In this document: in pieces, positions 3,044 to 54,500 of the stretch | Position numbering within the stretch: position 1 is the first letter of the stretch | How the letters are laid out: each line of letters begins with the position of its first letter | Assembly (NCBI GenBank): GCA_964496095.1 | Contig: CAZBWU010000006.1 | Span: forward strand, 1-56,309 | Direction: 5' to 3' | Source of the DNA: an uncultured Gammaproteobacteria bacterium | GTDB lineage: Bacteria; Patescibacteriota; Patescibacteriia; Magasanikbacterales; GWA2-37-8 | Length of the DNA stretch: 56,309 nucleotides | Translations under genes and position numbers: made by a program | Notes under the pieces: model-generated | What the model was told of the DNA's origin: nothing | The model's input: the letters and a program-made list of their open reading frames with translations, nothing else | The model's database searches: none

Positions 3044-3256
3044 GCTTATATAATTATATTACTCACAATACTACAAAAGTCAAGGCTCCGTTCGACAAGC
3101 TTTTTCAAATAAAATAAAAACATTCCACTTTCGTGGAATGTTTTTAAAATGCTTTCCGAGATTCCTGTAGTTGTATACACAATTATTATATACACAACTA
3201 CATCAGGAACCTCGGCCCGGTGCAGTGAGATGGTTGAACCACCTCTGCGATCAGGA

Positions 3257-3679
3257 CTACCGTGCATAGGCACAGGACGGCGCTTTTCCGCCGTAGGCGT
3301 CTCGAACCTCCTTCGGCAAGGAGTCGAAGTAGGCCTTGGCAGCCTTGTTCGCCTCGTCCACGGTCGCCCGGGTGATCTTGCCCTTGAAGGCGAAGATCTC
3401 GGCGAAGTGGGCCTTGGCCTGGGCACGAGCCGAGACAAGGTCCTTCACCTTCTGCGCCTCCTGCGCCGTGGCCGTATTGGCCACCAGCAGGTTCACAGTC
3501 GCGCGCCGGATCTTCTTCTGTTGCGCGCGGACGGGCACCACGATCTCCGGCTCGAAGGTGGCCGTGCTCGGACGCACCACCTTGACGACCTCTGGCTCGA
3601 AGACGAACCGCTGATCCGCGCGGGCGGGGTTGATGGTGGCGAGAACGAGCGCGATGAGCGCGAGGATGAAAAGCTTCAC
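3257..3679 (-). CDS. GC-rich secreted hypothetical protein (140 aa)
   Basis: Signal peptide MKLFILALIALVLATINPARA, AGGAG RBS before GTG, G/C-ending codons, own promoter at 3804-3832. Confidence 0.75.
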   Translation of the reverse strand: MKLFILALIALVLATINPARADQRFVFEPEVVKVVRPSTATFEPEIVVPVRAQQKKIRRATVNLLVANTATAQEAQKVKDLVSARAQAKAHFAEIFAFKGKITRATVDEANKAAKAYFDSLPKEVRDAYGGKAPSCAYAR

Positions 3680-3803
3680 GGCAGTCTCCTGGAATGTGCT
3701 AAGTCCCCCAAAAACACCGAATGTGCCAAGGGGAAAGAAACCGCTAACTTAACGAGTTCTTTTCCCTTAGCAAACCTATTTTGTTATTAAAGAGCAACAG
3801 ACT

Positions 3804-3832
3804 AGTATACACCAAAACAGAGGTTTTGTCAA
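3804..3832 (-). promoter_or_regulatory. sigma70 promoter for the 140-aa gene
   Basis: TTGACA-17nt-TATACT on the minus strand. Confidence 0.8.
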
Positions 3833-3919
3833 TCCCCACACGAGAGTGATAACACTTTTTTGGCTAATTATAAACAAATTTAATGAACGGGCAGCATTAT
3901 TTTAGCGAAAATCACTGGT

Positions 3920-4104
3920 GCGAGCCTTGAAATTAGGAGGTAGCAGACAGAGACGAGCCTGAGCAATCCCGACTTGTCGGGATCTGCCCTGCTGTTTGAG
4001 CCCGCAGGCGAGTTCAAGGCGGAAGCGAGGGTGAGTCCTGTCTGGCTCCGAGTAATTTCATTAGCTCGCGCTTCTTTCTGACCCTTTCTTCTAAAGAAAG
4101 GGTC
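3920..4104. repeat. REP/MITE-like multi-hairpin element with a nested ATCCCGACTTGTCGGGAT palindrome
   Basis: Outer inverted repeat GCGAGC..GAAATTA.GGAG / CTCC..TAATTTC..GCTCGC; internal TGTTTGAGCCCGCAGGGCGAGTT; closing hairpin GACCCTTTCT/AGAAAGGGTC. Confidence 0.55.
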
Positions 4105-4189
4105 TATTAAAGTTGGTTTTGATAATAAAAGGTGGGACGCTTAGCGTCCCAATCACAGCGCTAAGCGCTGGGGATAAAATTTTTTAAAA

Positions 4190-4314
4190 TTGTATATACT
4201 AGTGTATACAACTGTGGATAAGTAGGTGTATAAGTCCACAGTAATGGGGATAACTTACCCACCTACTTTGCTAATCCTAGCCAAAACAAAGTTTGTATAT
4301 ACTAGTTTATACAA
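4190..4314. promoter_or_regulatory. Cluster of DnaA-box-like sites bracketed by two 22-bp palindromes
   Basis: Perfect DnaA box TGTGGATAA at 4213-4221 plus degenerate boxes; TTGTATATACTAGTGTATACAA at 4190 and TTGTATATACTAGTTTATACAA at 4293. Confidence 0.6.
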
Positions 4315-4318
4315 ACAA

Positions 4319-4347
4319 TTGACAAAAGTGAAAAAAACTGGTATAAT
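4319..4347 (+). promoter_or_regulatory. Consensus sigma70 promoter
   Basis: TTGACA-17nt-TATAAT. Confidence 0.85.
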
Positions 4348-4353
4348 TATTTA

Positions 4354-4704
4354 TGTAGAGTTCTTCTGCTCTACACCTTTACAACTGTCTGTTTCCTTAA
4401 ACAGACCAAAAACCATCACACTGCATAAAAGAAAGCGGGCGAACAACTGCTAACTACATAAAGTAGAAAAGCAATGGCGCGCCCAACTTCTTCCAGGGTA
4501 TCTCCAATTAGCCAAATGCCTTCTAGGCTCTATGGCACCGGAGTCCGCCCCCAAGCGGTTGAGGTTACGTTCATATGCTCTTAGGTCGCTAGCGTGCCAG
4601 TTCCCCGCAAGGGGGAAGACACCTCACCTTCGTAGCATCCATCAAAGGCGATTTGCCTCCTGTACCAAAAAAGTTTTGATTCAGAAGGGTGATCGCCTTT
4701 TTTT
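4354..4704 (+). ncRNA. Candidate structured non-coding RNA of unknown family (~350 nt)
   Basis: Lies between a perfect promoter and a long hairpin plus T-run; several stems (TGTAGAG/CTCTACA, GTCTGTTT/AAACAGAC, TGAGGT/ACCTCA enclosing CCCC-GCAA-GGGG); no convincing ORF. Confidence 0.45.
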
Positions 4705-4718
4705 ATTGTATTTATATC

Positions 4719-4747
4719 TTTACAAAACTCTTTCTTTTTAGTAGACT
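4719..4747 (+). promoter_or_regulatory. sigma70-like promoter for the M28 peptidase
   Basis: TTTACA-17nt-TAGACT. Confidence 0.65.
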
Positions 4748-4855
4748 CATCTATTCAGTCTCTTTTCAGGTCCCCGTAATTTGCGCACGGGCATCTGTAG
4801 GAGTCTGACTCCTAACAAAGCGCACTTTGACAAAAAAACGGAAGGTCTTTTCATC

Positions 4856-6604
4856 ATGTTGACGAAAAAGTATATCTGGGTTCTGGTCTTCGCACTGGCG
4901 TTGGCGGAGTGCTTGATGCCGAAGCACGCGACGCCGCTACAGAGCAGCGATCTCCAGGAGAAGATCCGCAAGGTCTTCTCCGGCGACCGGGCCCTGGCCA
5001 CCGTGGCGAGCCTGGAGGCCGACCCGTGGCGACTGGCCGGCAACAAACCGTTCAACCGGGCGATCGCACTCGGGGTGGAGCAGCTCGAAAAGGCTGGATA
5101 CATCCTGGAAGCAGATGCCCGCCCGAGCGACAGACTCATCTACCGCATCGAGAAGCGAAGAATGGATGAGCCGACCTGGGAGCCGAAGAGCGCGTCTCTT
5201 ACGATCGTGGGGCAGTCGGTGCCGTTGCTCGACTTCAAGACCAACATGAACATGATCGCCGTTAACTCCTACTCGACGCCGATCGGCGGCGTGGAGGCAG
5301 AGCTGGTGTCCGTCGGGCGGGGTCGGCCCGAGGATCTGGAGGGAAAAGAGTTGGCGGGGAAGATTGTCCTCGTCGATTACCCCTATCCTCCACCAAAGTT
5401 CGTGACTGAGGCCTACAAATTGGGGGTGATCGGGGTCGTAATGTATGTTCCTTCATACCCCATGAAGGAGGCGCCCACGAATTCGATTCAGTTTCACTAC
5501 TTCAATCTTGACGCCGGGCAATGGGTGGTCCTGCTCTCATCGAACGCCAAGGAGAATCTCTTCAAAGCAGTGGCGACGAGCCCAGTACCATTGCGCGTAC
5601 ACGTAGACATTCAGACGCTCATCTACGAGTCGGACGAGCAGATGATCGTCGCCGAAATCCTGGGCTCCTCAGCACCCGAAGAGCGGTTCGTTTCCTCTGG
5701 CCACGTGAGCGAACCTGGGGCGAACGACAACGCCTCTGGTGTCGGCACTCAAGTCGAACTGGCTCGAACCTTGGCTCAGCTCCTCAAGAAGGGCCAGTGG
5801 AACCCATCACGAACGGTGACGTTCATCTGGGGCGACGAAATCGGCGCCGTGGAATGGTTCCTCACCAAGGACCCTAAACGGGCGAAAGGGGTAAAGTGGG
5901 GCATCTCCCTCGACATGGTCGGGGAGACGGAGAACTTCCTGGTCGAGAAAACCGGAGACCCTTCCGCTATCTGGACTCGGGGCAAAGATCATCACAGCGG
6001 CTGGGGAGGCGAAAAGCCAATCTCGGCTGACCAACTCTTCCCTAGTTTCCTGAATGATTTCGTCGTTGGTCGCTGCCTTGACCAGGCGGCAACGAACGGC
6101 TGGAAGGTGCGGGCCAACCCTTTTGAAGGCGGCAGTGACCACGTGTCGTTCATCGACGCGGGGGTGCCGGCCGTTCTCTTCAATCACTATCCGGACACCG
6201 CGTACCACCACGACAACGATCGTCTCGGCCGGGTCAATCCGATTGAGATGGCCAATGTCGGTGTCTGCGCGGGGTCTGTCGCGGCCATCTTGACCACTGC
6301 AGACGGTGCTGCCGCACAGGCTGTGGTCGATGAAGTCAAGGTGGCTGCCCTTGAACGGTTGGCGACGGAGTTCAAGCTGTCGCAAGCCGAAGTGGCCAAG
6401 GGTGGAAAGTTGGATCAGGAAGTGACGATCATCACCACCTGGACCGAGTGGTACGCTCGAGCACTGCAGACAACCCAGCAGATCGAAGTCGGCGGACCGA
6501 GTCCGTCCACGACTGCTACGATCGATGCCGCCATCGCCGAGATCAAGCGCGTGGGCGAGCAGTACGTCGCCGAGCTGAAGGCCACCACACCGCCGTCGCA
6601 CTAG
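4856..6604 (+). CDS. Secreted M28-family Zn peptidase with PA domain, GC-rich
   Basis: GHVSEPGANDNASG, GDEIG, SLDMVG, GGSDH and YHH metal-binding motifs; signal peptide from ATG 4856 (the track's upstream start at 4781 is probably an over-extension). Confidence 0.85.
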   Translation: MLTKKYIWVLVFALALAECLMPKHATPLQSSDLQEKIRKVFSGDRALATVASLEADPWRLAGNKPFNRAIALGVEQLEKAGYILEADARPSDRLIYRIEKRRMDEPTWEPKSASLTIVGQSVPLLDFKTNMNMIAVNSYSTPIGGVEAELVSVGRGRPEDLEGKELAGKIVLVDYPYPPPKFVTEAYKLGVIGVVMYVPSYPMKEAPTNSIQFHYFNLDAGQWVVLLSSNAKENLFKAVATSPVPLRVHVDIQTLIYESDEQMIVAEILGSSAPEERFVSSGHVSEPGANDNASGVGTQVELARTLAQLLKKGQWNPSRTVTFIWGDEIGAVEWFLTKDPKRAKGVKWGISLDMVGETENFLVEKTGDPSAIWTRGKDHHSGWGGEKPISADQLFPSFLNDFVVGRCLDQAATNGWKVRANPFEGGSDHVSFIDAGVPAVLFNHYPDTAYHHDNDRLGRVNPIEMANVGVCAGSVAAILTTADGAAAQAVVDEVKVAALERLATEFKLSQAEVAKGGKLDQEVTIITTWTEWYARALQTTQQIEVGGPSPSTTATIDAAIAEIKRVGEQYVAELKATTPPSH

Positions 6605-6830
6605 AACCACGGCACGCGGATCACGCTCACGAGCTAACTTCGCTTGCCTTCGATCTGCATCGAAGAAGGTGGTGGGGTTACGAGCAATAATAAACAATTC
6701 GTTCGCCATCCCACTACCTTTCTAAAGATAATATATTTGTCTTTCAGAAAGGTGGTGGTGAATGAATATTTTTTTAAAAATTAAAACATAAGAAACATCC
6801 AAGTCACATTGGGTGTTTTTTTGTATCATA

Positions 6831-7959: not shown

Positions 7960-9474
7960 ATGTTCCTCAAATTAAATTCCGCAGCTGCGGTGGGCCTTGA
8001 TTGCTTACCAGTAGATGTGGAGGTTGATATAAACAAAGGCCAAAGTGCTTTTAATATCGTAGGGCTTCCTGACACTTCTATCCACGAAGCCAAAGACCGT
8101 ATTCATTCCGCTCTCAAAAATTCCGGGTTTTCTTACCCCTTTAACTTTCGCATCCTGGTCAATCTAGCTCCGGCTGATCTGCATAAAGAAGGACCCTCTT
8201 ATGATCTGCCAATGGCGCTAGGCATTATTAGTATTAGCAATGATTTGGAAATAAATTTTACCGACTCGGTCTTTGTTGGCGAACTAGCACTTGATGGCGC
8301 CCTGCGACATACCAATGGTATTTTACCAATTACTATCTTTGCCAAAAAAAATGGCTACAAAAAAATATTCTTACCAGAAGTAAATGCGCCCGAAGCAGCC
8401 CTGGTAGATAACATAGAAATCTATCCAATAAAAAATCTAAAACAACTCGTAGATCACCTCACCGAGGTGGCGCCAATATCGCCATACATCAGACCCGACA
8501 AATGGAACGAGTTTGAAACACCACAATACGAACTAGATATGGCTTTTATCAAAGGCCAAGAGTTTGTGAAGCGCGCGCTTGAGATCGCAGCGAGCGGTTC
8601 ACACAATATATTGATGAGTGGCCCACCCGGATCTGGTAAAACTTTACTGGCTCGTAGTTTTCCATCTATCTTGCCAAAGCTCACACCCGAAGAAGCGCTA
8701 GAAGTTACCAAAATTTATTCTGTAGCTGGCCAATTGCAAAATGGATTCATCAAAGAACGACCATTTCGTTCTCCACATCATACAGCCTCAGGTGTATCAC
8801 TTGTTGGTGGCGGCAAATTCCCACGCCCCGGAGAAATATCTCTCGCTCATCGTGGCGTATTGTTCCTAGACGAATTCCCAGAGTTCCCTCGCACGGTTTT
8901 GGAAAATTTACGCCAACCACTAGAAGACGGCGTTATTACTATTTCGCGCGCGCAAAGTGTTCTCAAATTTCCCGCGAGATTTATTCTTGTCGCTAGTCAA
9001 AATCCTTGCCCCTGCGGATTTAGCACAGACCCAGACAGACAGTGCTCTTGTGGGCCAAGCCAAATCGCGCGCTACCAAAAAAGAATTAGCGGGCCACTTC
9101 TTGATCGTATAGATTTACACGTAGAAGTGCCAAGAGTAAAATTTGAAAAATTAGCATCAGAGATAAACGAAGAATCATCGGCCAAAATTCGTGAACGGGT
9201 GGAAGAGGCCAGACAAATCCAAACCAATCGTTTTAAAAATACAAATATTCACTGCAACAGCGAGATGCGCAACCCGGAAATAAAAGAATATTGCAAACTT
9301 GATAATCAATCTATAGATTTACTTCGCGCGGCCGTCACCCAAATGCACTTATCTGCCCGTGCTTATAATAGAATTCTTAAACTCGCCCGCACTATTGCCG
9401 ATTTGGGCAAGAGTGATAACATTGCATTAGAGCATGTCGCCGAAGCATTACAGTTCCGAGCTAAAATAGAATAA
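7960..9474 (+). CDS. comM: YifB/ComM Mg-chelatase-like AAA+ ATPase
   Basis: VGLPD, Walker A GPPGSGKT, RPFRSPHH, LFLDEFPEF, GPLLDRID, HVAEALQFR. Confidence 0.93.
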   Translation: MFLKLNSAAAVGLDCLPVDVEVDINKGQSAFNIVGLPDTSIHEAKDRIHSALKNSGFSYPFNFRILVNLAPADLHKEGPSYDLPMALGIISISNDLEINFTDSVFVGELALDGALRHTNGILPITIFAKKNGYKKIFLPEVNAPEAALVDNIEIYPIKNLKQLVDHLTEVAPISPYIRPDKWNEFETPQYELDMAFIKGQEFVKRALEIAASGSHNILMSGPPGSGKTLLARSFPSILPKLTPEEALEVTKIYSVAGQLQNGFIKERPFRSPHHTASGVSLVGGGKFPRPGEISLAHRGVLFLDEFPEFPRTVLENLRQPLEDGVITISRAQSVLKFPARFILVASQNPCPCGFSTDPDRQCSCGPSQIARYQKRISGPLLDRIDLHVEVPRVKFEKLASEINEESSAKIRERVEEARQIQTNRFKNTNIHCNSEMRNPEIKEYCKLDNQSIDLLRAAVTQMHLSARAYNRILKLARTIADLGKSDNIALEHVAEALQFRAKIE

Positions 9475-9558
9475 AGCATGCCTGCCCCGTAGCGGTCGCC
9501 TTTGCGACCTGCTACTGGGGTTGCGGAAGCACTGCAATTTAGAGCTAAAGTAGAATAA
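9475..9558 (+). pseudogene. Displaced duplicate of the comM 3' end, interrupted by a 40-bp hairpin element
   Basis: AGCATG|element|TTGCGGAAGCACTGCAATTTAGAGCTAAAGTAGAATAA reads HVAEALQFRAKVE* once the element is removed. Confidence 0.9.
9481..9520 (+). mobile_element. 40-bp bulged-hairpin element (CCCCG..CTGGGG family), copy 1
   Basis: CCTG CCCC GTAG C GGTCGC CTTT GCGACC T G CTAC T GGGG. Confidence 0.8.
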
Positions 9559-9622
9559 ATTTGCCCAAAACCAAAGTCTTTGCTACAATTCTAACCAATC
9601 AAAAAATAACTAACTACAACAT

Positions 9623-10339
9623 ATGATGAAAAAAATAATCATCGCCCTAGTCATAGTCACCGTAGCCATTGTCGCCTTTTTCTTCTTTAAGAAAACACCT
9701 GCCGTCCAAGCGCCAGTAGAAGAAAAGGTAAACCAAACACCTCCAATACAAACCGAAGTAAAAACCGAACCAACGTCCACCCCGCCAGCTAAAGAAGAAA
9801 CAAAAAAACCAGAGCCAATAGATTTAAGTCAATATAAAACACCAATTATGTTAATAGATCAAAAGAAAAGCTATACAGCTAAAATGAAAACAAGCGTTGG
9901 GGAAATAGATATAGAATTAAATGTAAAAGACACTCCAGTTACAGCCAATAATTTTGTTTTCCTCGCCAAGAAAAATTTCTATGACAATGTTATTTTCCAC
10001 CGTGTCATCAAAGGCTTTATGATTCAAGGTGGTGACCCAACCGGCACTGGCTCAGGCGGACCTGGCTACAAATTTAATGACGAACCATTTACAGGAGAAT
10101 ACACTCGTGGGACAGTGGCTATGGCCAACTCTGGTCCAAATACCAACGGCAGTCAGTTTTTCATTATGCATGCTGATGTCGGTTTACAAAAAGCTTATGT
10201 AATTTTTGGTAAGGTTGTAAAAGGTTTGGATGTGGTAGATAAGATTGCCGAAGCTGAAACTACCTGGGGTGGAGATGGTGCTATGTCAAAACCAGTTGAA
10301 CCAGTCAAGATTTTATCAGTTGAGATTGTTGAGAAATAA
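9623..10339 (+). CDS. Cyclophilin-type peptidyl-prolyl isomerase with N-terminal membrane anchor
   Basis: FHRVIKGFMIQGGDPTGTGSGGPGY, AMANSGPNTNGSQFFI. Confidence 0.93.
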   Translation: MMKKIIIALVIVTVAIVAFFFFKKTPAVQAPVEEKVNQTPPIQTEVKTEPTSTPPAKEETKKPEPIDLSQYKTPIMLIDQKKSYTAKMKTSVGEIDIELNVKDTPVTANNFVFLAKKNFYDNVIFHRVIKGFMIQGGDPTGTGSGGPGYKFNDEPFTGEYTRGTVAMANSGPNTNGSQFFIMHADVGLQKAYVIFGKVVKGLDVVDKIAEAETTWGGDGAMSKPVEPVKILSVEIVEK

Positions 10340-11108: not shown

Positions 11109-11137
11109 ACTATATCACAAATTGCCATTTTTGTCAA
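11109..11137 (-). promoter_or_regulatory. sigma70 promoter for the 3D-domain gene
   Basis: TTGACA-17nt-TATAGT on the minus strand. Confidence 0.7.
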
Positions 11138-11281
11138 CCTTGTTAAGTCCCGCCGTGGCGGGTCGGGCAATGCCCGACTTAACAGGGTCAACCCTGTTAA
11201 CCCCCTCTTCGGTATTGGCATATTATAAAAAAATGATATAGAATACCACCTAAGACTAGTAAATTTATCCCTGTTTTTTAT

Positions 11282-14952: not shown

Positions 14953-16074
14953 TTACTGCCTAATAGGCATCACAATATACACGAAGTTTTTATCTTCTTT
15001 TGGCGCAAGAATACATGGACTCTCGGCGTTTACTACTCTCAGGACCGAAGTTTCTTCATCAATATTTGCCAACCCATCCAAAACATAGCGGTGGTTGAGT
15101 AAGATATTATTTTTTTCTCCTTTTATCTCGGCGCTAGCTTCGGATTTATGTTCACCGGTTTGAGTGGACACAGAAGATATCATCACTGCACCAGCAGTTG
15201 GATCAAACTCAAAGTTAACCGCATTTACACCCACAGTTGTAAACAAGCTAGCAGCTTTGATTTCTTTAGTTATTTGGTTGGTAGAAAACTCAGCTGTGGT
15301 TCTAAATTCTTTGGGGATAATCTGGGTATAATCAGGATATTGACCATCAACCAGTCGTGAAACCAACTCTACTTCATTACACCTCAACACTATTTGGTTT
15401 TCTGTCACTAACAATCTTACATTCTTTTCGTTATCTAACCCTTTGGATAAAGACAAAATATGACTAATCTCTGAAGCAGTACGGGCAGGGATTATAATTC
15501 TTGTTTTTTCATCACCTTGGATTAACTTTACTTTTTTTTCTGCTAATCTATAACTATCCGTAGCAGCCATAGTGATCATATTTGGTTCGTCGTTAAAATT
15601 AAACAACACACCAGCCAACTCTGCTCGGATTTCATTCTTTGAAGCTGCTTGAAAAACCTGCCCCAGACCCTTTTTAAAGAGTTCTAGATCAATAAGGTAT
15701 CCTTTACCCTCTCCGACCACTGGAACGACTGGAAACTCCTCTGCAGAGGTTCCTTTTATCTTTGTAGATGATTTGCCGGACACTACTTCTACTTCGTTGT
15801 CCTTAAGAATCAACTCAACTTTTTCATCTGACAGCAAATTCACAAAATCAGTCAGGGTTCTAGCTGGAACAGTAAAGTTTCCTGGAGTTTCAACTTTGGC
15901 TCGTAGAGTAGCGACCGTTGCCAACTCTAGATTGGTGGCGACTAGTTCTACTTTTTGTTCACTCGCTCTTATTAGAACATTACCCAAGATTGGTAGGTTG
16001 GTGTTTTTGCCGGCCACGCCAATCACAAGCGCTAAGGCTTTGGAAAGGTTTTCTTTTGTGCAGAGAAACTTCAT
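14953..16074 (-). CDS. dnaN: DNA polymerase III beta clamp
   Basis: LPILGNVLI, ATNLE, ATDSYRL, LVDGQYPDY, VMPIR. Confidence 0.97.
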   Translation of the reverse strand: MKFLCTKENLSKALALVIGVAGKNTNLPILGNVLIRASEQKVELVATNLELATVATLRAKVETPGNFTVPARTLTDFVNLLSDEKVELILKDNEVEVVSGKSSTKIKGTSAEEFPVVPVVGEGKGYLIDLELFKKGLGQVFQAASKNEIRAELAGVLFNFNDEPNMITMAATDSYRLAEKKVKLIQGDEKTRIIIPARTASEISHILSLSKGLDNEKNVRLLVTENQIVLRCNEVELVSRLVDGQYPDYTQIIPKEFRTTAEFSTNQITKEIKAASLFTTVGVNAVNFEFDPTAGAVMISSVSTQTGEHKSEASAEIKGEKNNILLNHRYVLDGLANIDEETSVLRVVNAESPCILAPKEDKNFVYIVMPIRQ

Positions 16075-16462: not shown

Positions 16463-17866
16463 TTAGGTGACAGTGTTATAGATTTTTTGTTTTATCAATT
16501 CTATTTCTTGTTTTAGTTTAGCGTCCTTTTCTATATCATTGATAATCTTGTTGTCAGCGTGCATAGCCGTAGTATGATCGCGCCCGCCAAGCTCGTGACC
16601 AATGGCCGGATAGGACATGTTTAGTTCTTTGCGCATCAAGTGCATAATGATTTGGCGAGGGTAAGAAAACTTTTTCTCACGACTTTGTCCGAGCAGATCG
16701 GCCACACTAACTGTGAAAAACTCGCTGGCGGCATCAATTATCTGTTGAGGGGTGATGGATTTGTAGGTAGAACGAACTTCGGTATTGGCTAGAAGAGATT
16801 TTACAGACTCAAGCGTTGGTTCCATGTTCTTGAGCTGATGAAGAGCAATTATTTTGTTTAGCGCCCCCTCTAGTTCACGGATATTTCTGTGGATAGTGGC
16901 GGCCACTGTCTGTAATATTTCTTGAGATAGTGGAAAATTCTTTTCTATACATTTCTTTTGTAGGATTGCGATTCTAGTTTCTAAGTCTGGTGGAGCCACA
17001 TCAACAATCATCCCCCACTCAAATCGTGATTTTAGACGGTCTTCAAGGGCTGGTATAGCTTTTGGTGGTCTATCAGAAGTCATGACTACCTGTTTGTTTT
17101 GTTGGTGGAGTTCGTTGAAAGTATGGAAGAAAGATTCTTGAGTTTTGTCTTTGCCAGAGATGAACTGGATATCATCAATAAGTAGTAAGTCTATGTTGCG
17201 GTATCTGTTTTGGAAGTTTTTGGCATTACCGTCGCGGACAGATGAGATATAGTCGTTGGAAAACTTCTCAGCACTGGCATACATGATGTTTATATTTGGT
17301 CGAGCCTTGAGGAGATGGTTGCCGATAGCTTGTAAAAGATGGGTCTTGCCTAACCCTACACCGCCATATATAAATAGTGGGTTATAAGCTTCACCAGGCC
17401 TGTTAACTACAGCTTGAGCCGCTGCATAAGCTAGTTCTGATCCGCCACCAACCACAAAAGTCTCAAAAACATATTTTGAGTTTAAGCCAAACTCGCCTAC
17501 GCGAGCCGGAGCCTTGATTTCGCTAGCTGGAGGGAAATTAGACTGTGGAAAAGTATCTGGAAGAACCGGGGTTTCTGTTTTTTCTTCTATGGCTACAGCT
17601 GGAGTGGTAATGTTTTTTATATTAAAGACCTTGTATTCAAGCTTTTTGATTGGCTTGCCAGTCACTCTTTCTAGGGACTTTACAATCATTTGGTGGTAGT
17701 TTTTTTCTAGCCAGCTTCGATAAAAGTCGTTTGGTACGCATAGTACAGCGCAACTGTCTTGGTAAGACATGATGTCAGTACCGCGAAACCAGGTGACAAA
17801 ATTTGGTTTGGAAATTGTTAATTCCAACTCTCCTAAGACAGCCTGCCAGATTTCGTGGTTGGACAT
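16463..17866 (-). CDS. dnaA: Chromosomal replication initiator DnaA
   Basis: YNPLFIYGGVGLGKTHL, LLIDDIQF, RLKSRF, GRDHTTAMHA. Confidence 0.98.
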   Translation of the reverse strand: MSNHEIWQAVLGELELTISKPNFVTWFRGTDIMSYQDSCAVLCVPNDFYRSWLEKNYHQMIVKSLERVTGKPIKKLEYKVFNIKNITTPAVAIEEKTETPVLPDTFPQSNFPPASEIKAPARVGEFGLNSKYVFETFVVGGGSELAYAAAQAVVNRPGEAYNPLFIYGGVGLGKTHLLQAIGNHLLKARPNINIMYASAEKFSNDYISSVRDGNAKNFQNRYRNIDLLLIDDIQFISGKDKTQESFFHTFNELHQQNKQVVMTSDRPPKAIPALEDRLKSRFEWGMIVDVAPPDLETRIAILQKKCIEKNFPLSQEILQTVAATIHRNIRELEGALNKIIALHQLKNMEPTLESVKSLLANTEVRSTYKSITPQQIIDAASEFFTVSVADLLGQSREKKFSYPRQIIMHLMRKELNMSYPAIGHELGGRDHTTAMHADNKIINDIEKDAKLKQEIELIKQKIYNTVT

Positions 17867-25093: not shown

Positions 25094-27769
25094 ATGAGCA
25101 GGTTAATCATCATTGACGGCAATGCGATAATACACAGGGCCTATCATGCCATACCGCCTCTGACTACCAAGGACGGCAAAATGGTAAATGCTGTTTATGG
25201 ATTTACATCCATGCTTCTTAAAGTTTGGAAAGATTTAAAACCCGATCATATTGCGGTGACTTTTGATATGGCTGGGCCAACTTTTCGGCACGTGCAGTTC
25301 AAAGAATATAAAGCTACGCGTGTCAAAGCTGATCAGGCTCTCTATGACCAAATTCCATTGGTGCATGAAGTGGTAGAATCTTTTGATTTACCAATTTATG
25401 AAATGAAAGGCTATGAGGCTGATGATGTGATAGGAACGATAGTTGAAAAAACAAAAGGCAAAGCAGAGGTCTTTGTGGTGACGGGTGATATGGATACATT
25501 ACAGCTAGTGCAAGAAGGAGTTAAAGTTTATACGCTTCGCAAAGGCATAAGCGATATAGTTATCTACGATACTAAAGAGGTAGAAAACAGATTTGGCTTT
25601 GGTCCAGAAAAAATGGTGGACTATAAAGCCTTGCGCGGAGACACCTCAGATAATATTCCAGGCGTGCCTGGTATTGGCGAAAAAACAGCCACGGATTTGA
25701 TAAAGGCCTATGGCAGTATAGAAAATATTTACGACCAACTAAAAGATGAAAAGTCAAAAATTAAATCAGAGATAAAACCAGGTGTACTAAATAAATTAAC
25801 TGAAGGTGAGGCTAGTGCCAGAATGAGTTTTGAGCTGGCTAGTATTAATTGCGCTGTGCCAGATTTGGATTTCAAGTTAGAAAATTGCAAGATAAAAGAA
25901 TTTAATAAATCAAAAATAGAAGAATTGTTTCAAAAGTTTGAATTTGTTTCATTGTTAAAACGTGTGCCCGGGTTTGATGTGTCAGTGATGGAAAAAGAAA
26001 CCCACAAAAAGAAAAATGAAATAAAAATGGTTTTTTCGGAAATTAAAACAGAGGCAGAACTAGTCGGAATGACCAAGTTAATTGAAAAAGAAAAATCATT
26101 TGTTTGTCGACCAGTATTGAGTGGGAAAGAAGTTTTGGAAACAGATTTGTTAGGATTAATATTTGGCGTGCAAGAAAATTTGTTTTTTGTAGAGACAAAA
26201 ATGATTAAAAAAATCTTGCCGATTTTTCAAAATGAAGAGATTCAATTAGTTGGCCATGATTTGAAAGATTTGTTCAAAGCCCTCAAATTTAATTTTGAAG
26301 CAGAGATAAAAAATAATTTGTTTGATGTGATGGTCGCGTCATATCTTCTTAATCCCGGCAGTCGCGCACATGATATTACCAGTCTGTTATTAAAAGTATT
26401 AGGTAAAACCTTGGCGCAAAACACAGCCCAAACTAATTTATTTGGCGTAGATAAGAAAAACTTGGCCGAAGAATTATTCTTGGTTTCTCAGACCAAAGAA
26501 AAACTACAGACTGAGTTAGAACAAGTTGATAATCTGGGACTGTTTAAAACTATAGAAATGGCGCTTATTCCAGTTTTGGCGGAGATGGAAGTAAATGGCG
26601 TGGCTATCGATCTCAAGATGATGGAAAAACTGTCTAAGGAAGCGACCGAGAGTCTAGAAAAAATAACGGCAAAAATATATAAGTTTGCCGGCATGGAATT
26701 TAACATTGCTTCGCCCTTGCAATTACGAGAAGTATTGTTTGATAAGATGGGGCTTTCAGTGGCAGGCATCAAAAAAGGCAAGACTGGTCTGTCTACCTCG
26801 GCTGAAGAATTAGAAAAATTACGAGACCTGCATCCAATCATTCCTGAAATTTCAGAATATCGTGAGCTGGCCAAATTGCAAAATACCTATATAGATGTTT
26901 TGCCTACCCTAGTCAACAAAAAAACGCACCGTATTCATACTCATTATAATCAAACTATTGCCGCCACTGGTCGTCTGTCTAGCATTGATCCAAACCTGCA
27001 AAACATTCCGATTCGCACCGAACTTGGTCGCGCTGTCCGTAAAGCGTTTATTGCCGAGCCGGGCAATGTGCTGGTAAGCGCCGATTATTCTCAGATTGAA
27101 TTGCGTATTGTGGCATCTCTAGCTGAGGATAAAAAAATGATTGAGATTTTTAACAACGACGAAGATATTCATCAGGCGACCGCGGCGGCGATAAACAATG
27201 TTCCGCTCGATAAAGTGACTAAAGAAATGCGCTATGCAGCCAAAGAAGTAAATTTTGGTGTGCTCTACGGGATGGGTTCGTATGGGCTCAGTTGGCGTAC
27301 CGGCATTTCGCAGTTTGAAGCCAAAGATTTTATCAAAAAATATTTTGAAGCGTTTAGTGGGGTGCGTGAATATATTGATCGCACCTTAGAATTTACCAAA
27401 AAAGAAGGTTATTGCGAAACCTTATTTGGTCGTCGTCGTTATTTGCCAGAACTTAATGCCGGTAATTTTCAACTACGTGCCGCGGCGGAGAGAATGGCGG
27501 TTAATCATCCTATCCAAGGCACAGCTGCGGATTTGATGAAGATGGCGATGATAGAAGTACACAAACAACTAACAACTAACAATAAAGAATTAGCAAAAGA
27601 AACAAGAATGATTTTGCAGGTGCATGACGAGTTGGTTTTGGAAGTAAAAGAAAGTTTGGCGGCAGAAGTCGGTGAGTTGGTAAAAAAGACAATGGAAAAT
27701 GTGGTATCCCTGCGCGTGCCGATTAAAGTCGGGTTGAGCTCTAATCGTAGCTGGGGTGAGATGAAATAA
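25094..27769 (+). CDS. polA: DNA polymerase I
   Basis: IIIDGNA..HRAYHA 5'-exonuclease, GDTSDNIPGVPGIG, DYSQIELR, LQVHDELV. Confidence 0.97.
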   Translation: MSRLIIIDGNAIIHRAYHAIPPLTTKDGKMVNAVYGFTSMLLKVWKDLKPDHIAVTFDMAGPTFRHVQFKEYKATRVKADQALYDQIPLVHEVVESFDLPIYEMKGYEADDVIGTIVEKTKGKAEVFVVTGDMDTLQLVQEGVKVYTLRKGISDIVIYDTKEVENRFGFGPEKMVDYKALRGDTSDNIPGVPGIGEKTATDLIKAYGSIENIYDQLKDEKSKIKSEIKPGVLNKLTEGEASARMSFELASINCAVPDLDFKLENCKIKEFNKSKIEELFQKFEFVSLLKRVPGFDVSVMEKETHKKKNEIKMVFSEIKTEAELVGMTKLIEKEKSFVCRPVLSGKEVLETDLLGLIFGVQENLFFVETKMIKKILPIFQNEEIQLVGHDLKDLFKALKFNFEAEIKNNLFDVMVASYLLNPGSRAHDITSLLLKVLGKTLAQNTAQTNLFGVDKKNLAEELFLVSQTKEKLQTELEQVDNLGLFKTIEMALIPVLAEMEVNGVAIDLKMMEKLSKEATESLEKITAKIYKFAGMEFNIASPLQLREVLFDKMGLSVAGIKKGKTGLSTSAEELEKLRDLHPIIPEISEYRELAKLQNTYIDVLPTLVNKKTHRIHTHYNQTIAATGRLSSIDPNLQNIPIRTELGRAVRKAFIAEPGNVLVSADYSQIELRIVASLAEDKKMIEIFNNDEDIHQATAAAINNVPLDKVTKEMRYAAKEVNFGVLYGMGSYGLSWRTGISQFEAKDFIKKYFEAFSGVREYIDRTLEFTKKEGYCETLFGRRRYLPELNAGNFQLRAAAERMAVNHPIQGTAADLMKMAMIEVHKQLTTNNKELAKETRMILQVHDELVLEVKESLAAEVGELVKKTMENVVSLRVPIKVGLSSNRSWGEMK

Positions 27770-32823: not shown

Positions 32824-32938
32824 TTTTAAGCAAAAGTCTCGGCGACGGCACCGTGTGGTATCGTCGCCGGCCGGGAAGGCAGTAGGTTGGCGCAGGTTCG
32901 CTCGCGCGAGCCTGGCGTTTTCTGCCTTTGTAGACGTG

Positions 32939-33097
32939 CTAGCCGTCGAGATCCGGCAAACGCGGCCTGTCCTCATCCCGTCCCGGTCGCCAGGGAAGGG
33001 GCTGGTCGCCTCGCCGTCTCGGTCGTGGCCGTGGCCGCGGACCTCCTTGATTCGGTGGTGGCGGAGCCTCCATGTCAGGGGGGATCGTCTCGCTCAT
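32939..33097 (-). CDS. GC-rich 52-aa Pro/Arg-rich peptide
   Basis: GGAGG RBS before ATG; MSETIPPDMEAPPPPNQGGPRPRPRPRRRGDQPLPWRPGRDEDRPRLPDLDG*; downstream GC hairpin. Confidence 0.5.
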   Translation of the reverse strand: MSETIPPDMEAPPPPNQGGPRPRPRPRRRGDQPLPWRPGRDEDRPRLPDLDG

Positions 33098-33233
33098 CGT
33101 TCCTCCAGGACACCCCTTTTTAGGGGGGGTCAAATTGGTGAGTATACAAAAAATACTGTTTTTTTTAAGTTTTGTCAATGCCCAGCATGCCTTGTTTGCT
33201 ATATTTTTGTTTTGGCATTAAAATTGTATCCAT

Positions 33234-48554: not shown

Positions 48555-51500
48555 ATGGCTGAGGCAGGAGGAGAAAAACTCCGGAGGAAAGCCTTTGGAG
48601 AAAGAATGAAAAATATTCCCATTTTTGTGTTATTTGGGCTAGTTTTGTTTTTTGCAACAGTCGGTTTTTTTTCAAAAAAAGTTTTGGCAGCGACCGCTCC
48701 AAATATTATTACTTATCAGGGTAAGTTGTTAAGAGATGGCTTATTACAAGTTAATGCTGTGGATATAAAATTTCTTCTCTATGATGATTTAATTGGTGGA
48801 AGTATTTTATATACAGCTAGTGGAACCGTGGGAGTTCCAGAGGCATTAAGTATTACACCTTCGCAAGGATTGTTTAGTATTAATTTGGGTGACACTAATA
48901 CTAATCCAGTCAACCCTACTATTTTTCAAAATAATAATTCGGTATATCTTGAGGTGGTTGTAGCGGGAGAAGTTCTTAGTCCGCGAAAAAGAATTACAGC
49001 TGTACCATATGCCTTCAATGCAAAGTATTTAGATGGTGTTGGTATAAATACTGTTTCCAGTTCCAGCTATATCCCAGTTTCAGACGCTAGTGGCAATTTC
49101 ACTTTTAATAGCACAACTGTTACTACCTCTACAATTTCAAACCTTGTTGCTGGGTTTACAACCACTACCAATCTCTATGTTTCAGGGTTAGCGAATTTTG
49201 CCAATTCGACCACGATGCAGACAACAACTATTACAGGGGGTTTTTATCAGTCTGGTTTAGCTGATTGTAGTGGAGAGGGGCAAACTTTGAATTATGATTT
49301 AGCTTTAGGTAAGTTTACATGTTTAGCAGATGCGATCGGAGCTGGGGGTGGAGGAAGTGGTGCAGTCGGAACTTCAACAGCTAATTATTTTGCATTTTAT
49401 GATTCGGCTAATTCTGTTACTGGTACGCCACTAATGCAATTTACAAACGGCGCAATCTCCTTTACTACCAATACATCTTTTTCTTTAGTTTTTTCTACTA
49501 ATGGTTTGTTTGGCAGTGTTACGACTACAAATTTAAGTGTTTCTGGTGCCTTGTTTTTACCTGCCAATTCTATTACAGACGGCATGGTTATTAATGGTTT
49601 AACAATTGATGGTGGCACAATCAATAACACGCCAATCGGTGGTGCTAATCCTTCTACAGGTGTTTTTACAAATCTTACTTCAAGTATATTTTTTGCGACA
49701 GACACTTTGTTTGTCAGCGCTTCCACAACTAATTTGTATGTGTCAGGTAGTTTGAATTTGCCAAATAATTCTATTACTAACGCAATGGTAGCGGATAACA
49801 TTACAGCTTCAAATTATTTACTTTTAACTGGAGGGTCTCTTTCTGGCCAATTAATTTTTACTTCTGCCTCAGGAACCGCTATCACTTCCACCAATATTGT
49901 AAGCACAAACCTTAATGCGGTTAATGTTACCTCTACCAATTTATATGTTTCTGCCACCACATCTATTGCTACCACCAGTGTGCTTAGAACTTTAAATATA
50001 GGTGGTTCAATTGCAGCTGATTACTATTTTTCGAATGCAAATGCAAACGCTTTCTTTTCAGGAGATAGTGGGGGGATAGTATTTAATGGCGGTTATTTGT
50101 TCGCTGCCGGCGCTGGCACTGGTTTGTATGTTGCAAATGGCGCCGTGTTTAGAGGTGGTTTGAGTAATGATACAGGTGCAAGTCTAGTTATTAATGGTGG
50201 AACAAGCGGTAATACATTGATAAACAATACCCTAACTTTTAATAATGCCACTGGTACCTCAATTACTTCAACCAACATTTATAATAACGGCGGATTTTTT
50301 CAAACAGGTTTAGGAGACTGTGATCTTGACACCCAAACAGTTAATTATGATATTGCTACTGGCAAGTTTAGTTGTTTGGCAGATGCAACTGGTGCTGGTG
50401 GTGGAAGCGGTGTAGTAGGAACATCTACAGTTAATTATTTTGCGTTTTATGATTCCGCAAACGCAGTGACCGGCACCCCGCTAATGCAACTTGTTAATGG
50501 TGCTATTACTTTTACAACAAACACTTCATTTTTATCTGTTTCTTCTAGTAACGCTTTGTTTTATGATGTATCTACAACTAATTTTGCTGTGATTGGTAAT
50601 GCCAATTTTAGAACGACTACAATAAGTGGGCAACTAACATTTGAAACTGCAAGCGGAACAAGTATCACTTCTACAAATATCGTCGTAACAAATAAAGTTG
50701 GTATTGGTACATCTACTCCAACTCAAGCATTGTCCGTTGTTGGGAATATTTCTAATATTATTGACTCAAATACACTTATTACTGAAGTGGGTACGGTAGC
50801 AGTTGGTTCTGGCCCCAATTCAATTTTTGTCTCTGGTCGTTATGCTTACGCTACTAATCGATCTGCAGACAGTATTTCTGTAGTAGATATCTCTAACCCT
50901 TCCGCTCCAATACAAGTCGGTACTGTATCTGTAGAAAGCAACCCCTATTCAATATTTGTCTCTGGTCGTTATGCCTATGTGGCAAATAGAGGTTCTGGAA
51001 CAGTATCTGTAGTAGATATTTCTAATCCCTCTACTCCAGTACAAGTTAGTACAGTACCCGTGGAAAGTGGCCCGCAATCAATTTTTGTCTCCGGCAGGTA
51101 TGCGTATGTGGCTAACTCACTTAGTGATAGTATTTCTGTAATAGATATTTCCAATCCTTTAGTTCCAGAGCAAATCGCTACTACTTCGGCTGAGCTAACA
51201 CCAAAATCAATTTTTGTTTCCGGTCGGTATGCATATACTGCTAATTCTGGGGGAAGTATCTCTGTGATAGATATTTCTAATCCTTCAAATCCTGTTCAAA
51301 TCGCAACCACCACAGTTGGAGATATAGATCAGTCATTAGGGCCAAATTCAATCTTTGTTTCCGGCCGGTATGCTTATACTGTAAATTCTAATGACACTTT
51401 TTCAGTTATTGATATAGCAGATCCATCTGCGCCTCTAGAAGTTGCTACAACTACTGTGGGTGCTGGTACGCAATCGTTGTATGTCTCAGGTCGTTATGCG

Positions 51501-54500
51501 TATGTTGCCAATAATAGTGATAATAATATTTCAGTTGTAGATATTTCTAGACCGCTTTCTCCGACTCAGGTGGCCATCAGTGGTTTGGTTGCCGGCGGAC
51601 CTACTTCTATTTATGTATCTGGACGATATACATACACAACAAATCTTGATGATACTATTTCGGTTATAGATATTTCTGGTACGGAAGTTTCAAGTCTTAT
51701 CGCCGGATCGGCAGAAGTAGGTAATTTTCAGTCGAGAAATGATATTTTTGCCCAAGGAAATATTATGGCCGGAACTTCCCTTATAGTTGGTGCTGGCGGA
51801 ATTTATTCTCAAGGAGGTCTATCTGTATTTTCTTCTTCTACTGGGGTTACATCTTCTATATTTAATGTTGGATCAAGCGGGGCTTCTAGTACTTTACGTG
51901 TATTTGCTAACGGCACAATTGTATTAGCAACTACTACTATTAATGGATTATTAACATTTAATTCAGCTGTAGGCGTGAGCTTGACGTCTACAAATTTATA
52001 TATTGCTAGTTTAGCAAATTTTGCAGGCAGTTTGGTTTTTGCAAATGCTAGTGGCACAAGCATTACTTCTACCAATGCCTTTTTTCCAAATTTGCTATCC
52101 ACCTCCATCACATCCACTAATTTATTTGCAACTTCGTCTGTATTTGTAAATGCAACTATTTCAAACGCTACTTCAACCAACCTGTATATTTCCAGTCTTT
52201 CAAATTTTGCAGGTCTATTAACTTTTACCACAGCTTCTGGCACCTCCATCACCTCTACTAATGCATTCTTTACAAACTTATCTGCCACTAACTTTAATCC
52301 GTCTAACATTATTGCCACCTCCATCACCTCAACTAATCTCTTCGCCACCACCTCCGTCTTCAACACCACCACCATTAACAATAAATTAAGCATCGGCACA
52401 ACCACATTTAACAAAGCTCTTACGGTAGTTGGTAGTATCTCCAACGTCTTAGACGTTGGATCAGACATCTCTCTAGTCACTTCTTCAGGAGTTGGTGGTT
52501 CTATCTTACAGTCTATTTTTGTCTCTGGTCGTTATGCATATATGACCAATCAGACTGCTAAGACCCTGACTATCGTTGATATAACCAACCCTTCGCTCCC
52601 TGTTTTTGTTGGTACTAGCTCTCTTAGTATTGCAACTGGTGGTCCAGGAGAAGTAGTTGTCTCTGGTCGTTATGCGTATGTATCAAATCCAAGCAATAAT
52701 AGCTTGTCAGTAGTAGATGTTTCTAATCCAGCTAGCCCAAGAGAAATTGCTACCACCACAGTTTCAGGTGGCGGACCCGTTGCTGTCTCTGGCCGTTATG
52801 CATATTTGGTTAATGGTACAGTAAGTAGGCTTACTGTGGTTGATATATCTATCCCATCTTCTCCAAGACAAATCGCCACTCTCAACGGTTTAGGAAATAC
52901 CACCTCAGGTATATATATCTCTGGTAGGTATGCCTACGTATCAAATACAAACGGTAAAACTGTCGCCGTAATTGATATTTCTGATCCAAGCAACCCATCT
53001 CTAGTAGGATCTGGTTCAGTCAGTGGTATTGCCGCCGATATCTTTGTCTCCGGTAGGTACGCATATACTGCCAATAGCACCTCAAACACTATCTCTGTTG
53101 TAAATATCTCTAATCCCGCCTCCCCGGTAGAAGTTGGTACTACTACAATAGTGGGAAATCCAGTTGATATCTTTGTCTCAGGACGTTATGCTTTTACTGC
53201 CAACAGTACCTCCAACACAATTTCAGTCATTGACGTATCAGTTCCTTCTTCTCCAACTTTAATTAAAAATATCGCGGTAGGAACTAGTCCTAACTCAGTT
53301 TTTGTCTCTGGTCGTTATGCCTATATCACCAATGCTAATTCCGCCAACTTCTCCATTGTTGATATCTCTGGCACAGAAGTAACCAGTCTCATCGCTCATT
53401 CGGCCGAAGCCGGACAACTTCAAGTCAGAAATGATATATTTGCCCAAGGAAGTATAATGGCCGGCACATCTCTGTCTGTTGGAGCTGGTGGTATTTCCTC
53501 GCACGGAGGTTTGTCTGTATTTTCATCTTCAACCGGAATTACCACTACTATATTTAGTGTCGGATCAAAAAATTCTACTACCACCCTTAGAGTATTTGCC
53601 GATGGTACTGTTATATTAGGCACCACCACCATGAACGGTTTGTTTACTTTTGGTAATGCTACGGGGACTAGTATTACTTCGACGAATGCAAGATTTACAA
53701 CCTTGAATTTTACAAATGCCACTGGTACTAATATTACTTCTACAAACGCTTTCTTAAGCAGTTTAAATTTTACTAGCGCAAGTGGTACGATGATTACTTC
53801 TACTAATTTATTTGTGTCGAGTAAGATTGGAATAAATTCCTCTAGTCCTGACGCTTCTCTTACGATTCAAGGAGTTGGTGGAACAAATCCATTAAATATT
53901 GTTTCTTCAACTGGAGCGTCCATGTTTACTATCCTTCAAAACGGAAATATTGGTATTGGTACCAGCACTCCAGGTCAAAAATTGTCTGTAATCGGAAATA
54001 TTTCAAATATAATTGATTCGGGTACAACAATGTCTCAAGTTAGTGCAATTGCAATCGGTCAGCCAAATTCTGTTTTTGTATCAGGTCGTTATGCGTATGT
54101 GCCAGGATTTACCGCCAATAAACTTTCAATTGTTGATGTCTCAAATCCTTCTGTGCCGGCGATCGTGGGCAATATTGCTCTTAGTTTTGGCCCCGCTAAA
54201 GTTTTTGTATCAGGTCGTTATGCGTATCTTGTTGATGCGTTTACAGGTGTGTTGGCTGTAGTAGATATATCTAATCCTTCTGCGCCCGTGCTGGTGTCTA
54301 CAAAAACTTTAAGCAGTTATACATCTTCCATTTATGTTTCTGGTAAATATTTATATGCTGCGCAAGACAGCTCAGCCGATCAAGTAGAAGTTTTAGATAT
54401 TTCCAATCCTTTTTCAGTTGTTTCGGTTGCTACTACTTCAGTGGGGGACTCACCTTCTTCTATTTATGTTTCTGGTCGCTATGCATATGTTGCCAATAGC

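Follow-up and report, generated by a model that had tools for sequence, protein, structure and literature searches.

The 3′ end of comM, comprising its last 13 codons, in an uncultured bacterium of the Magasanikbacterales (GTDB phylum Patescibacteriota) is present twice, and a short hairpin separates the two copies. The locus lies on a 56,309-nucleotide stretch of DNA (GenBank assembly GCA_964496095.1, contig CAZBWU010000006.1, positions 1 to 56,309 of the forward strand), herein called the window. The genome containing the window (G000) is ~1.0 Mb in 14 contigs with a GC content of 38%. Its comM gene is intact, runs from 7960 to 9474 on the forward strand, and encodes a 504-aa ATPase of the ComM/YifB family with the Pfam domains ChlI, Mg_chelatase, and Mg_chelatase_C. 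The Mg_chelatase_C match spans residues 404–500 of the 504-aa protein, and the stop codon is at 9472–9474. The original prediction, made from the letters of the window, held that the comM 3′ end is duplicated and recoded around a hairpin element. Both the coordinates and the sequence of this duplication were confirmed.

The whole feature occupies 129 bp and is read on the forward strand throughout. It opens with the target flank a, GAGCATG (9430–9436), and the point after G9436 corresponds to the hairpin insertion point in the native copy. The working end of comM follows (TCGCC...GAATAA, 9437–9474), which is probably imported, as discussed below. This working end is 38 nt long and holds 12 codons with the stop, plus 2 nt of a codon split at the junction. 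After its stop codon lie 6 nt of comM sequence, AGCATG (9475–9480), which are the continuation of the displaced copy 5′ of the hairpin. We call such a tag a′, meaning the 3–7 nt of target sequence found between the imported piece (the patch) and the hairpin. The hairpin itself, CCTGCCCCGTAGCGGTCGCCTTTGCGACCTGCTACTGGGG, is 40 nt long (9481–9520) and is built as CCTG-CCCC, 5 bp, 6 bp, and a CTTT loop. The displaced native end, which we call the ghost (TTGCGG...GAATAA, 9521–9558), begins at the first base 3′ of the hairpin. The ghost is untranslated and keeps an intact frame and a stop codon. Deletion of 9437–9520 would regenerate a continuous comM end. The insert totals 84 nt with 46 nt between the two end copies, and it contains no open reading frame (ORF).

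The two comM ends are 79% identical. They differ at 8 nt across 7 codons (C/T, C/G, T/C, A/G, G/A, C/T, C/A, and A/G); six of these codon changes are synonymous and one exchanges Ile and Val, as had been predicted. At most one amino-acid change among 8 random substitutions has P = 1.3e-4. The hairpin is GC-rich, carries two bulged T on its 3′ arm, and scores 49.6 bits with the covariance model of its family, R1. Its predicted DNA fold has an energy of −17 kcal/mol (z = −6.7), and 0/200 shuffles were as stable. An assembly artefact is unlikely because the layout occurs at the identical base in independent assemblies. These are the genus relative G003, two contigs from groundwater metagenomes that are identical to G003, and a separate contig from the Joint Genome Institute (JGI; L174). 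In G003 and L174 the layout sits at the equivalent position, cat(a)|TTGC. A scan of public collections for the comM hairpin–ghost joint returned the G003 lineage (the two groundwater contigs) and one further lineage (L174), together with one chance match in an actinobacterial metagenome-assembled genome (MAG) and nothing further.

Relatives were compared to decide which of the two ends is native. The comM 3′ end was recovered from 13 relatives in a genus sample of 16 genomes. The comparison across relatives called for by the original prediction returned empty sites in 12 of the 13, where other DNA follows the stop codon. The remaining relative, G003, has the same layout at the same base. Islands with these junctions were not found among the genus relatives examined. 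In G000, the DNA after the ghost, ATTTGC...TTGCTACAATTCTAACC, is the DNA that lies directly 3′ of the comM stop codon in G001, G014, and G006. The conserved motif TTGCTACAATTCTAACC (9580–9596, forward strand) lies 15–25 nt past the comM stop in these three genomes and marks the native downstream flank; a gene for a cyclophilin-type isomerase (9623–10339, Pfam Pro_isomerase) stands downstream of it. The downstream comM copy is in the native position, because its flank follows the comM stop in relatives. Based on these alignments, the copy at 9521–9558 is the original end of comM, separated from its gene by the hairpin.

The working end has different affinities. The ghost matches the sister genome G015 at 31/38 nt, equal to the gene body at 82%, and the working end matches G015 at 29/38 nt. 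With the comM end of G012, the working end is identical at 37/38 nt, whereas the gene bodies of G000 and G012 are 74% identical over 1351 nt. The working copy thus appears to have been imported from a diverged lineage. The differences that the original prediction termed recoding do not reflect local recoding, since the working copy appears imported and the downstream copy is native. G012 is itself unusual at this position. Its comM is 93% identical to that of its sister G004 over the gene body, and 67–82% in the last 87 nt (loci L050 and L055). The G012 comM end may be what a lost cassette left behind, or it may reflect allele exchange at the end of the gene. Since this end resembles that of G000 and departs from that of G004, comM ends have probably been exchanged between lineages.

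The same arrangement occurs at two further genes in the window. As predicted, the geometry at hppA and polA is that of comM. The hppA gene (21348–23333, reverse strand) has a working end followed by AACCCGA, a hairpin, and a second copy. This 3′-end locus covers 21245–21347 on the reverse strand, with the hairpin at 21301–21340 and the native ghost at 21245–21300. The two hppA copies differ at 17 nt and 0 amino acids. Sequence comparison with sister G015 gave 49/57 nt for the hppA ghost, in line with the gene body at 87%, and 40/57 nt for the working end. The foreign-looking tract of hppA begins ~20 nt upstream of the duplication. The polA locus (25003–25093, forward strand) is a 5′-end case, with ghost start codons at 25003–25031, a reversed hairpin at 25032–25073, and a new leader before the working start at 25094. 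The polA copies differ at 12 nt and 0 amino acids over 10 codons. The dead polA start (25003) is 2 nt past a tRNA gene (24929–25000), so the original polA had almost no leader. The replacement start comes with its own ~20-nt leader.

The polarity and junction anatomy of the hairpin are repeated at hppA, polA, and more than 10 other gene ends. We scored 11 ghost-type loci (comM, hppA, polA, gap, uvrA, a tRNA, and others), and in all of them the ghost begins at base +1 past CTGGGG; G000 polA and L174, which were read separately, agree. The working copy is always on the CYTGCCCCG side of the hairpin. Because of this fixed polarity, the hairpin is co-directional with the gene in 3′-end cases and antisense in 5′-end cases. 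A target sequence of 3–7 nt (a′) stands between the imported piece and the hairpin. Short tags equivalent to that of comM are TCATA in G003 and L174 and AACCCGA at hppA, and one is also present at polA. In four 3′ cases the imported piece ends 0–4 nt past the stop codon, in another it ends 35 nt past it, and in 5′ cases it includes a leader of 11–35 nt. The joints between patch and a′ show microhomology of 2–5 nt (TA.AG at comM and TAAA(A)CC at hppA). The left limit of the foreign sequence varies, from ~0 nt at comM to ~20 nt at hppA. At locus L094, the duplicated segment is a 3′ untranslated region (UTR) and not coding, so the duplication is not solely a product of selection for an intact protein. 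At loci L091, L096, and L097, R1 hairpins stand in displaced tRNA-gene fragments beside intact tRNA copies, for example GCTGAG-hairpin-CTACCCTGTC. With these fragments, the ghost layout extends beyond protein genes.

Hairpins of this family were detected first with a regular expression and then with covariance model R1, since only the structure is conserved. The shared architecture consists of a CCCC/GGGG stem, a bulged T, a 5-bp stem, a second bulged T, a 6–7-bp stem, and a 3–4-nt loop, in copies 36–45 nt long. The two bulged T on the 3′ arm and the CCCC/GGGG pairing are invariant, and the upper stems covary. In an alignment of 16 sequences, 92.9% of cells were paired, with compensatory changes in 8/16 pairs. 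The covariation score was reached by 0/500 shuffles, and slid registers fell to 34–52% pairing. R1 hairpins were present in 27/100 genomes of the taxonomic family and, at E ≤ 1e-4, in 14/401 genomes of the phylum sample. Nucleotide alignment showed no obvious ghosts at the distant members in the phylum sample. We counted 8 copies in G000, 19 in G003, and 10 in G015, numbers restricted by MAG quality. Exact or near-exact repeats of the hairpin were absent from the window. Rfam gave no family at the hairpin and only four tRNAs in the window. The R1 search of the 100 family genomes showed no hairpin arrays. Three pattern matches in viral contigs were not true members of the family.

Many hairpins lie inside genes. 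Of 74 non-redundant copies, which form the hairpin set used here, ~30 are in frame within long ORFs, with three preferred readings such as ..KPRTEPLSGSGTGE... The G000 orthologues (uvrA, uvrB, and priA-, topA-, glmS-, and recG-like genes) have no insert, and the corresponding gaps are 11–16 aa. One copy in the window is translated in frame inside rnpA (18428–18466, forward strand; ORF 18190–18717), where the Pfam Ribonuclease_P match spans the insert. It adds ~16 residues (..EAKPRTEPLSGSGTGD..) in a loop of the RNase P protein. Because in-frame copies face empty orthologues, comparative evidence marks the R1 hairpin as a small insertion element, a mobile, structure-constrained family comparable to the palindromic elements of Rickettsia. 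A target-site duplication of ≥2 nt flanking the hairpin was absent at comM and hppA. Hairpin flanks are variable, a T after the hairpin is their sole common feature, and there is no strong insertion-site consensus.

The carriers of the comM layout are not sisters. In a comM tree of 1400 columns with the carriers G000, G003, and L174, L174 pairs with the empty G006 (support 100/99) and G000 with the empty G015 (99/98). This tree forces at least 3 gains or losses. Between G003 and L174, identity is 80% in the gene body, 82% in the working end, 71% in the hairpin, and 89.5% in the ghost, and the joint GATTGA-TCATA-CC is identical. Ghosts of different carriers were then compared with each other. 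All 4/4 differences between the comM ghosts of G003 and L174 are silent (P = 0.002), and the comM ghosts of G000 and G003 differ at 10 nt and 1 aa (P = 1e-5). At polA, 3/3 differences between G112 and G113 are silent (P = 0.006). At hppA, 11/11 differences between G000 and G111 are silent, a result not reached in 1e5 trials. These silent differences indicate that each ghost was a working gene end until its own displacement, and that the ghosts were not inherited as non-coding copies from a common ancestor. Meanwhile, the patch–a′–hairpin junction is common to carriers, GATTGATCATACC in G003 and L174 and AAACCCGACT in G000 and G111. The AAACCCGACT-hairpin arrangement is found at hppA in two genera, and 92 other genomes are empty there. 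Taken with the shared joints, the silent divergence of ghosts suggests that the cassette arrives repeatedly at the same site. From these alignments and the tree, the distribution of cassettes among carriers is non-vertical.

An enzyme that could move the hairpin was sought in several ways. We clustered all ORFs within 1.2 kb of the 74 hairpins and found no recurring ORF family and no parent element; the clusters were orthologous host genes. The Y1 transposase (PF01797; IS200/IS605/RAYT) was absent from G000, G003, and G015 and was found in 1/16 genus genomes. One tyrosine recombinase of ~330 aa is present in 14/16 genus genomes, with or without hairpins, while G006 has two and G010 has three. 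Small GIY-YIG genes are numerous in all genus genomes, with seven in G000 in addition to UvrC. There is no correlation between their number and that of the hairpins, and none adjoins a hairpin in G000. At the 5′ end of gap (GAPDH) on G003:C47 (locus L020, 1501–1942), a hairpin and ghost start have a co-directional GIY-YIG gene 184 nt on, the only hairpin–nuclease adjacency seen. General scans of the window ORFs turned up no reverse transcriptase domain; a genome-wide RVT_1 search was not made. Since there is no recurring ORF family, no Y1 transposase, and neither a recombinase nor a GIY-YIG gene that tracks the hairpins, we infer that the agent acts in trans.

The explanation we prefer, to which we give about an even chance, is that the comM feature is a gene-free terminus-replacement cassette spreading horizontally. 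The unit moving between lineages would consist of an imported end, a few nt of target (a′), and the hairpin. It would travel probably on DNA taken up from relatives and would install in one step, so that the gene is at no stage interrupted. Homology with comM would resolve the incoming DNA at its gene-side edge. At the opposite edge, the hairpin's 3′ end (CTGGGG) would form a precise joint with the recipient where a′ matches, pushing the resident end aside. Candidate agents are a structure-specific nuclease or recombinase that acts on the hairpin in its folded form, or template switching of replication or repair at the hairpin. Cassettes may be lost later, and the comM end of G012 suggests that the imported end possibly stays in place when this happens. 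The parts of this explanation that we infer are movement as a unit, the chemistry of joining, and the source of the DNA. The original prediction had favored a hairpin-driven mechanism at comM over an att scar. Its link to the hairpin stands; it named no mechanism, and the evidence points to a cassette arriving repeatedly in separate lineages.

A bolder form of the cassette explanation can be put forward tentatively. Bacteria of the candidate phyla radiation (CPR) may harbor an unrecognized class of mobile element, a protein-free, gene-specific "homing cassette" of <100 nt, composed of a surrogate terminus, a 3–7-nt address tag, and a bulged hairpin. The 3′ end of the hairpin would be joined precisely to the target by a structure-specific enzyme of the host or one acting in trans.

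Several observations weigh against a transferred cassette. The inference of a comM donor is based on 38 nt. Both comM copies are nearly equal with respect to sister G015 (29 versus 31 of 38), so the description of the working end as imported depends on the G012 match and on the analogy with hppA. The G000 and G012 data do not set the direction of the exchange between their comM ends. Working ends and hairpins of different carriers are 67–82% identical, which would make the cassettes old lineages, and a recent donor–recipient pair with near-identical whole cassettes was not found. The polA hairpins stand at two positions 6 nt apart in different genera. These two positions would mean that new cassettes also form de novo, which transfer of a unit does not explain. 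No enzyme, intermediate, or polymorphic population was seen in these assembled sequences, and any account of how the hairpin end is joined so precisely is speculative. The bias of hairpin strand with respect to replication is weak and, over the 74 copies, not significant (42/74), within what MAG quality allows. In the window, 3/3 ghost-type copies are oriented alike relative to the GC-skew switch.

The strongest competing explanation, which we consider rather improbable, places the hairpin first and the rescue second. The hairpin would have broken the resident comM end, and each lineage would separately have copied the missing end from foreign homologous DNA. Copying would stall at the 5′ edge of the hairpin and rejoin at microhomology a few bases upstream, by template switching or by homology-facilitated illegitimate recombination (HFIR), with no movement of a unit. 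This route accounts for a number of observations. Once the hairpin is removed, a′ and the ghost form a continuous native sequence, and elsewhere the hairpin inserts alone. The patch/a′ joints show the 2–5 nt of microhomology noted above, and polA has two different insertion points. HFIR with 3–10 bp of microhomology is documented in transformable bacteria (PMC6382021). Short template-switch tracts would also account for patching being confined to hairpins within ~75 nt of a gene end. The demands of this route are heavy, however. Three lineages would each need an independent hit at one and the same comM base, and two genera at one and the same hppA base, although insertion sites lack a strong consensus. 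Identical patch/a′ joints would have to come from separate events. A broken intermediate would be needed in genes such as polA and hppA, and no unpatched frame-breaking hairpin near a gene end was found among the 74 copies. A symmetrical stall also does not explain the fixed polarity of the hairpin. Both processes may operate, with hairpin-first rescue forming cassettes and cassette transfer spreading them.

Larger inserts at the comM end are known from elsewhere in the family. A degenerate pattern for the duplicated comM peptide found two copies 84 nt apart in G000 and G003, and 1210 nt apart in G104. The G104 comM end (G104:C1:27600–30600; locus L158, 800–2070) carries a 1.2-kb insert encoding a 352-aa protein of the Fic/DOC family. 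This insert is flanked by two ~47-nt copies of the comM end with one mismatch, and it has no hairpin and no integrase. In G121, a Fic-like gene lies directly after comM, and the second comM-end copy of that genome is an overlap of two contig ends. On these comparisons, cassettes in this family seem to use the end of comM as a general landing pad.

Very unlikely, in our judgment, is a conventional att scar. In this explanation, an integrase island or prophage with a surrogate comM end lost its interior, and the hairpin was part of the attachment site. Elements that carry a replacement gene end are well known, among them e14 and phage 21 in icd of Escherichia coli, and the comM 3′ end takes larger inserts in this family (the 1.2-kb Fic cassette of G104 and the Fic gene of G121). 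The idea of an att-like scar, which the original prediction had raised, is therefore not baseless for comM in general, but it is unfit at this locus. Only 46 nt without an ORF lie between the copies, and islands at these junctions were not found in relatives. The insert of G104 lacks a hairpin, and it differs in its boundaries and in having near-identical repeats. One tyrosine recombinase is present in 14/16 genus genomes whatever the hairpin count. The R1 hairpin is in frame inside many ORFs, and more than 10 independent loci would need to decay to the same minimal form. The original prediction leaned toward a hairpin-tied feature over a conventional integrase scar, and an 84-nt ORF-free insert, the lack of islands, and the recurrent anatomy at more than 10 other gene ends bear this out.

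We see slightly less prospect still for the hairpin as a functional RNA or DNA signal, such as a terminator, a processing site, or a regulatory structure, kept by selection with the duplicated end as a by-product. Its structure is conserved through compensatory changes, and one G-U-type pair fits only the top strand of the element. Against such a role, no U-tract follows the hairpin, Rfam gives no match, and copies are found within coding sequence and in either orientation with respect to genes. Their presence is also patchy among close relatives, with empty orthologous sites.

The least probable explanation needs no foreign DNA: the comM end would have been duplicated locally in tandem, the copies would have drifted, and a hairpin would by chance have landed in the spare one. 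It was rejected on the substitution pattern, the G012 match, and the silent ghost–ghost differences. Short tandem duplications at microhomologies are common in bacteria, and a spare copy is a safe landing place. However, 7/8 comM differences (P = 1.3e-4), 17/17 at hppA, and 12/12 at polA are silent, which is not how a non-coding copy would be expected to drift. The working end also agrees with that of another lineage at 37/38 nt, and the hairpin always keeps a distance of 3–7 nt to the ghost's inner edge, in a fixed polarity. A diversity-generating retroelement was also rejected, since the differences are silent and are not confined to the adenines of one copy.

Set against known systems, the transferred cassette at comM would be most like gene hybrids of fungal mitochondria. 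Paquin et al. reportedly described hybrids made by mobile endonucleases in 1994. Such mORF gene hybrids occur in atp6 of Allomyces macrogynus and in atp6, atp9, cox2, and nad3 of Glomus, where a foreign C-terminus enters in phase together with an endonuclease ORF and the native C-terminus remains downstream (PMC3630166). As at comM, the inserted end is foreign, the native end resembles close relatives, sister taxa are empty, and the protein is kept while the DNA differs (PMC3630166). The mORF hybrids carry an endonuclease gene that drives their mobility, whereas the comM insert is 84 nt with a 40-nt hairpin and no ORF. R1 elements are also bacterial, and they target 5′ ends, tRNA genes, and a 3′ UTR in addition. 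By analogy, the mORF hybrids are the closest described systems, and integrase elements with surrogate gene ends are also close.

Integrative elements with a surrogate target-gene end include e14 and phage 21 in E. coli icd and islands in the 3′ ends of tRNA genes. In these elements, as at comM, the incoming DNA supplies a replacement end, and the displaced end persists as a pseudo-copy. They are kilobase-sized with their own integrase and identical att cores, whereas the feature described here is tiny, has no recombinase gene, and has repeats of 79% identity. Single-strand hairpin recombination sites are known from integrons (attC × attI) and from CTX phage (attP with XerCD). Like attC, the R1 hairpin folds imperfectly, has extrahelical bases on a single arm, and combines a conserved base with a top that is variable and covaries. 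Again as with attC, the polarity is fixed, the inserted DNA is on the 5′ side of the hairpin, and the joint falls exactly at the base of the hairpin. Unlike attC, it has no IntI-type integrase, no cassette array, and no GTTRRRY box, and its targets are gene ends and not attI or dif.

For the hairpin alone, the nearest comparison is with Rickettsia palindromic elements (RPE) and other intragenic MITEs (miniature transposable elements that carry inverted repeats), reviewed in PMC10969869. Judged from sequence, R1 hairpins resemble RPE as small non-autonomous palindromic repeats that lie in frame in unrelated essential genes and are translated (PMC10969869). RPE are ~100–150 bp and R1 copies 36–45 nt, and the available portion of that review reports no imported replacement end and ghost for RPE (PMC10969869). 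R1 also differs from the MITE class in having no target-site duplication at comM and hppA and no parent transposon found.

HFIR is said to have been described by de Vries and Wackernagel in 2002. During natural transformation, homology anchors the incoming DNA on one side, microhomology of 3–10 bp provides the joint on the other, and this process has been proposed to restore inactivated genes (PMC6382021). HFIR joints are scattered, whereas the R1 joint is always at the hairpin end, with fixed polarity and at the same base across lineages. The comM cassette works like the surrogate-end systems without any gene of its own, and it lacks defining features of each known family. A literature search, incomplete in its coverage, found no description of such a layout in CPR or other bacteria.

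Other features of the window and of related genomes were recorded as well. Blocks of ~65% GC at 3210–6634 and 32830–33117 look foreign in a genome of 38% GC, and the first holds a 607-aa ORF with a Peptidase_M28 domain (4781–6604). The segment 14137–18717 resembles a replication-origin region, with dnaN (14953–16074) and dnaA (16463–17866) on the reverse strand and rnpA (18190–18717) on the forward strand. The GC skew changes sign at ~14–17 kb, and 4/8 hairpin copies of the genome lie within 9 kb of this region. At 48555–56309, an ORF of >2585 aa runs off the window, with 129-nt (43-aa) tandem units and matches to Pfam LVIVD repeats and beta-propellers. Other GC-rich tandem or nested intergenic hairpins, at 4134–4173 and 11135–11196, gave no R1 match. 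A second repeat family, ...TGTCATCCTGA(G/A)C...GAAGGATC..., distinct from R1, is found beside hairpin loci at C1:203700–203800 of the genome. It also occurs downstream of hppA in G012, G073, G067, and G068 (loci L115, L118, L119, and L126).

ComM is a helicase that aids the integration of transforming DNA, and its role with such DNA makes comM noteworthy as a target. The junction rules constrain the enzyme to be sought, which would have to account for fixed polarity, a precise joint at the hairpin 3′ end, a short tag, and homology at the opposite edge. Gene callers can be misled by ghosts and in-frame hairpins, and so can phylogenies of gene ends. If the cassette explanation is true, the strategy of supplying a spare target end works without a gene of the element's own, at a size far smaller than mitochondrial endonuclease elements or prophages. 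The cassettes would then mark DNA exchange and recombination at the sequence level among lineages of ultra-small, uncultured bacteria, for which genetic work in culture is not yet possible, and the displaced copies would also date each arrival. A homing cassette of the kind we tentatively propose would colonize the ends of essential genes, tRNA genes included, without inactivating them, and would drive the exchange of gene ends between lineages.

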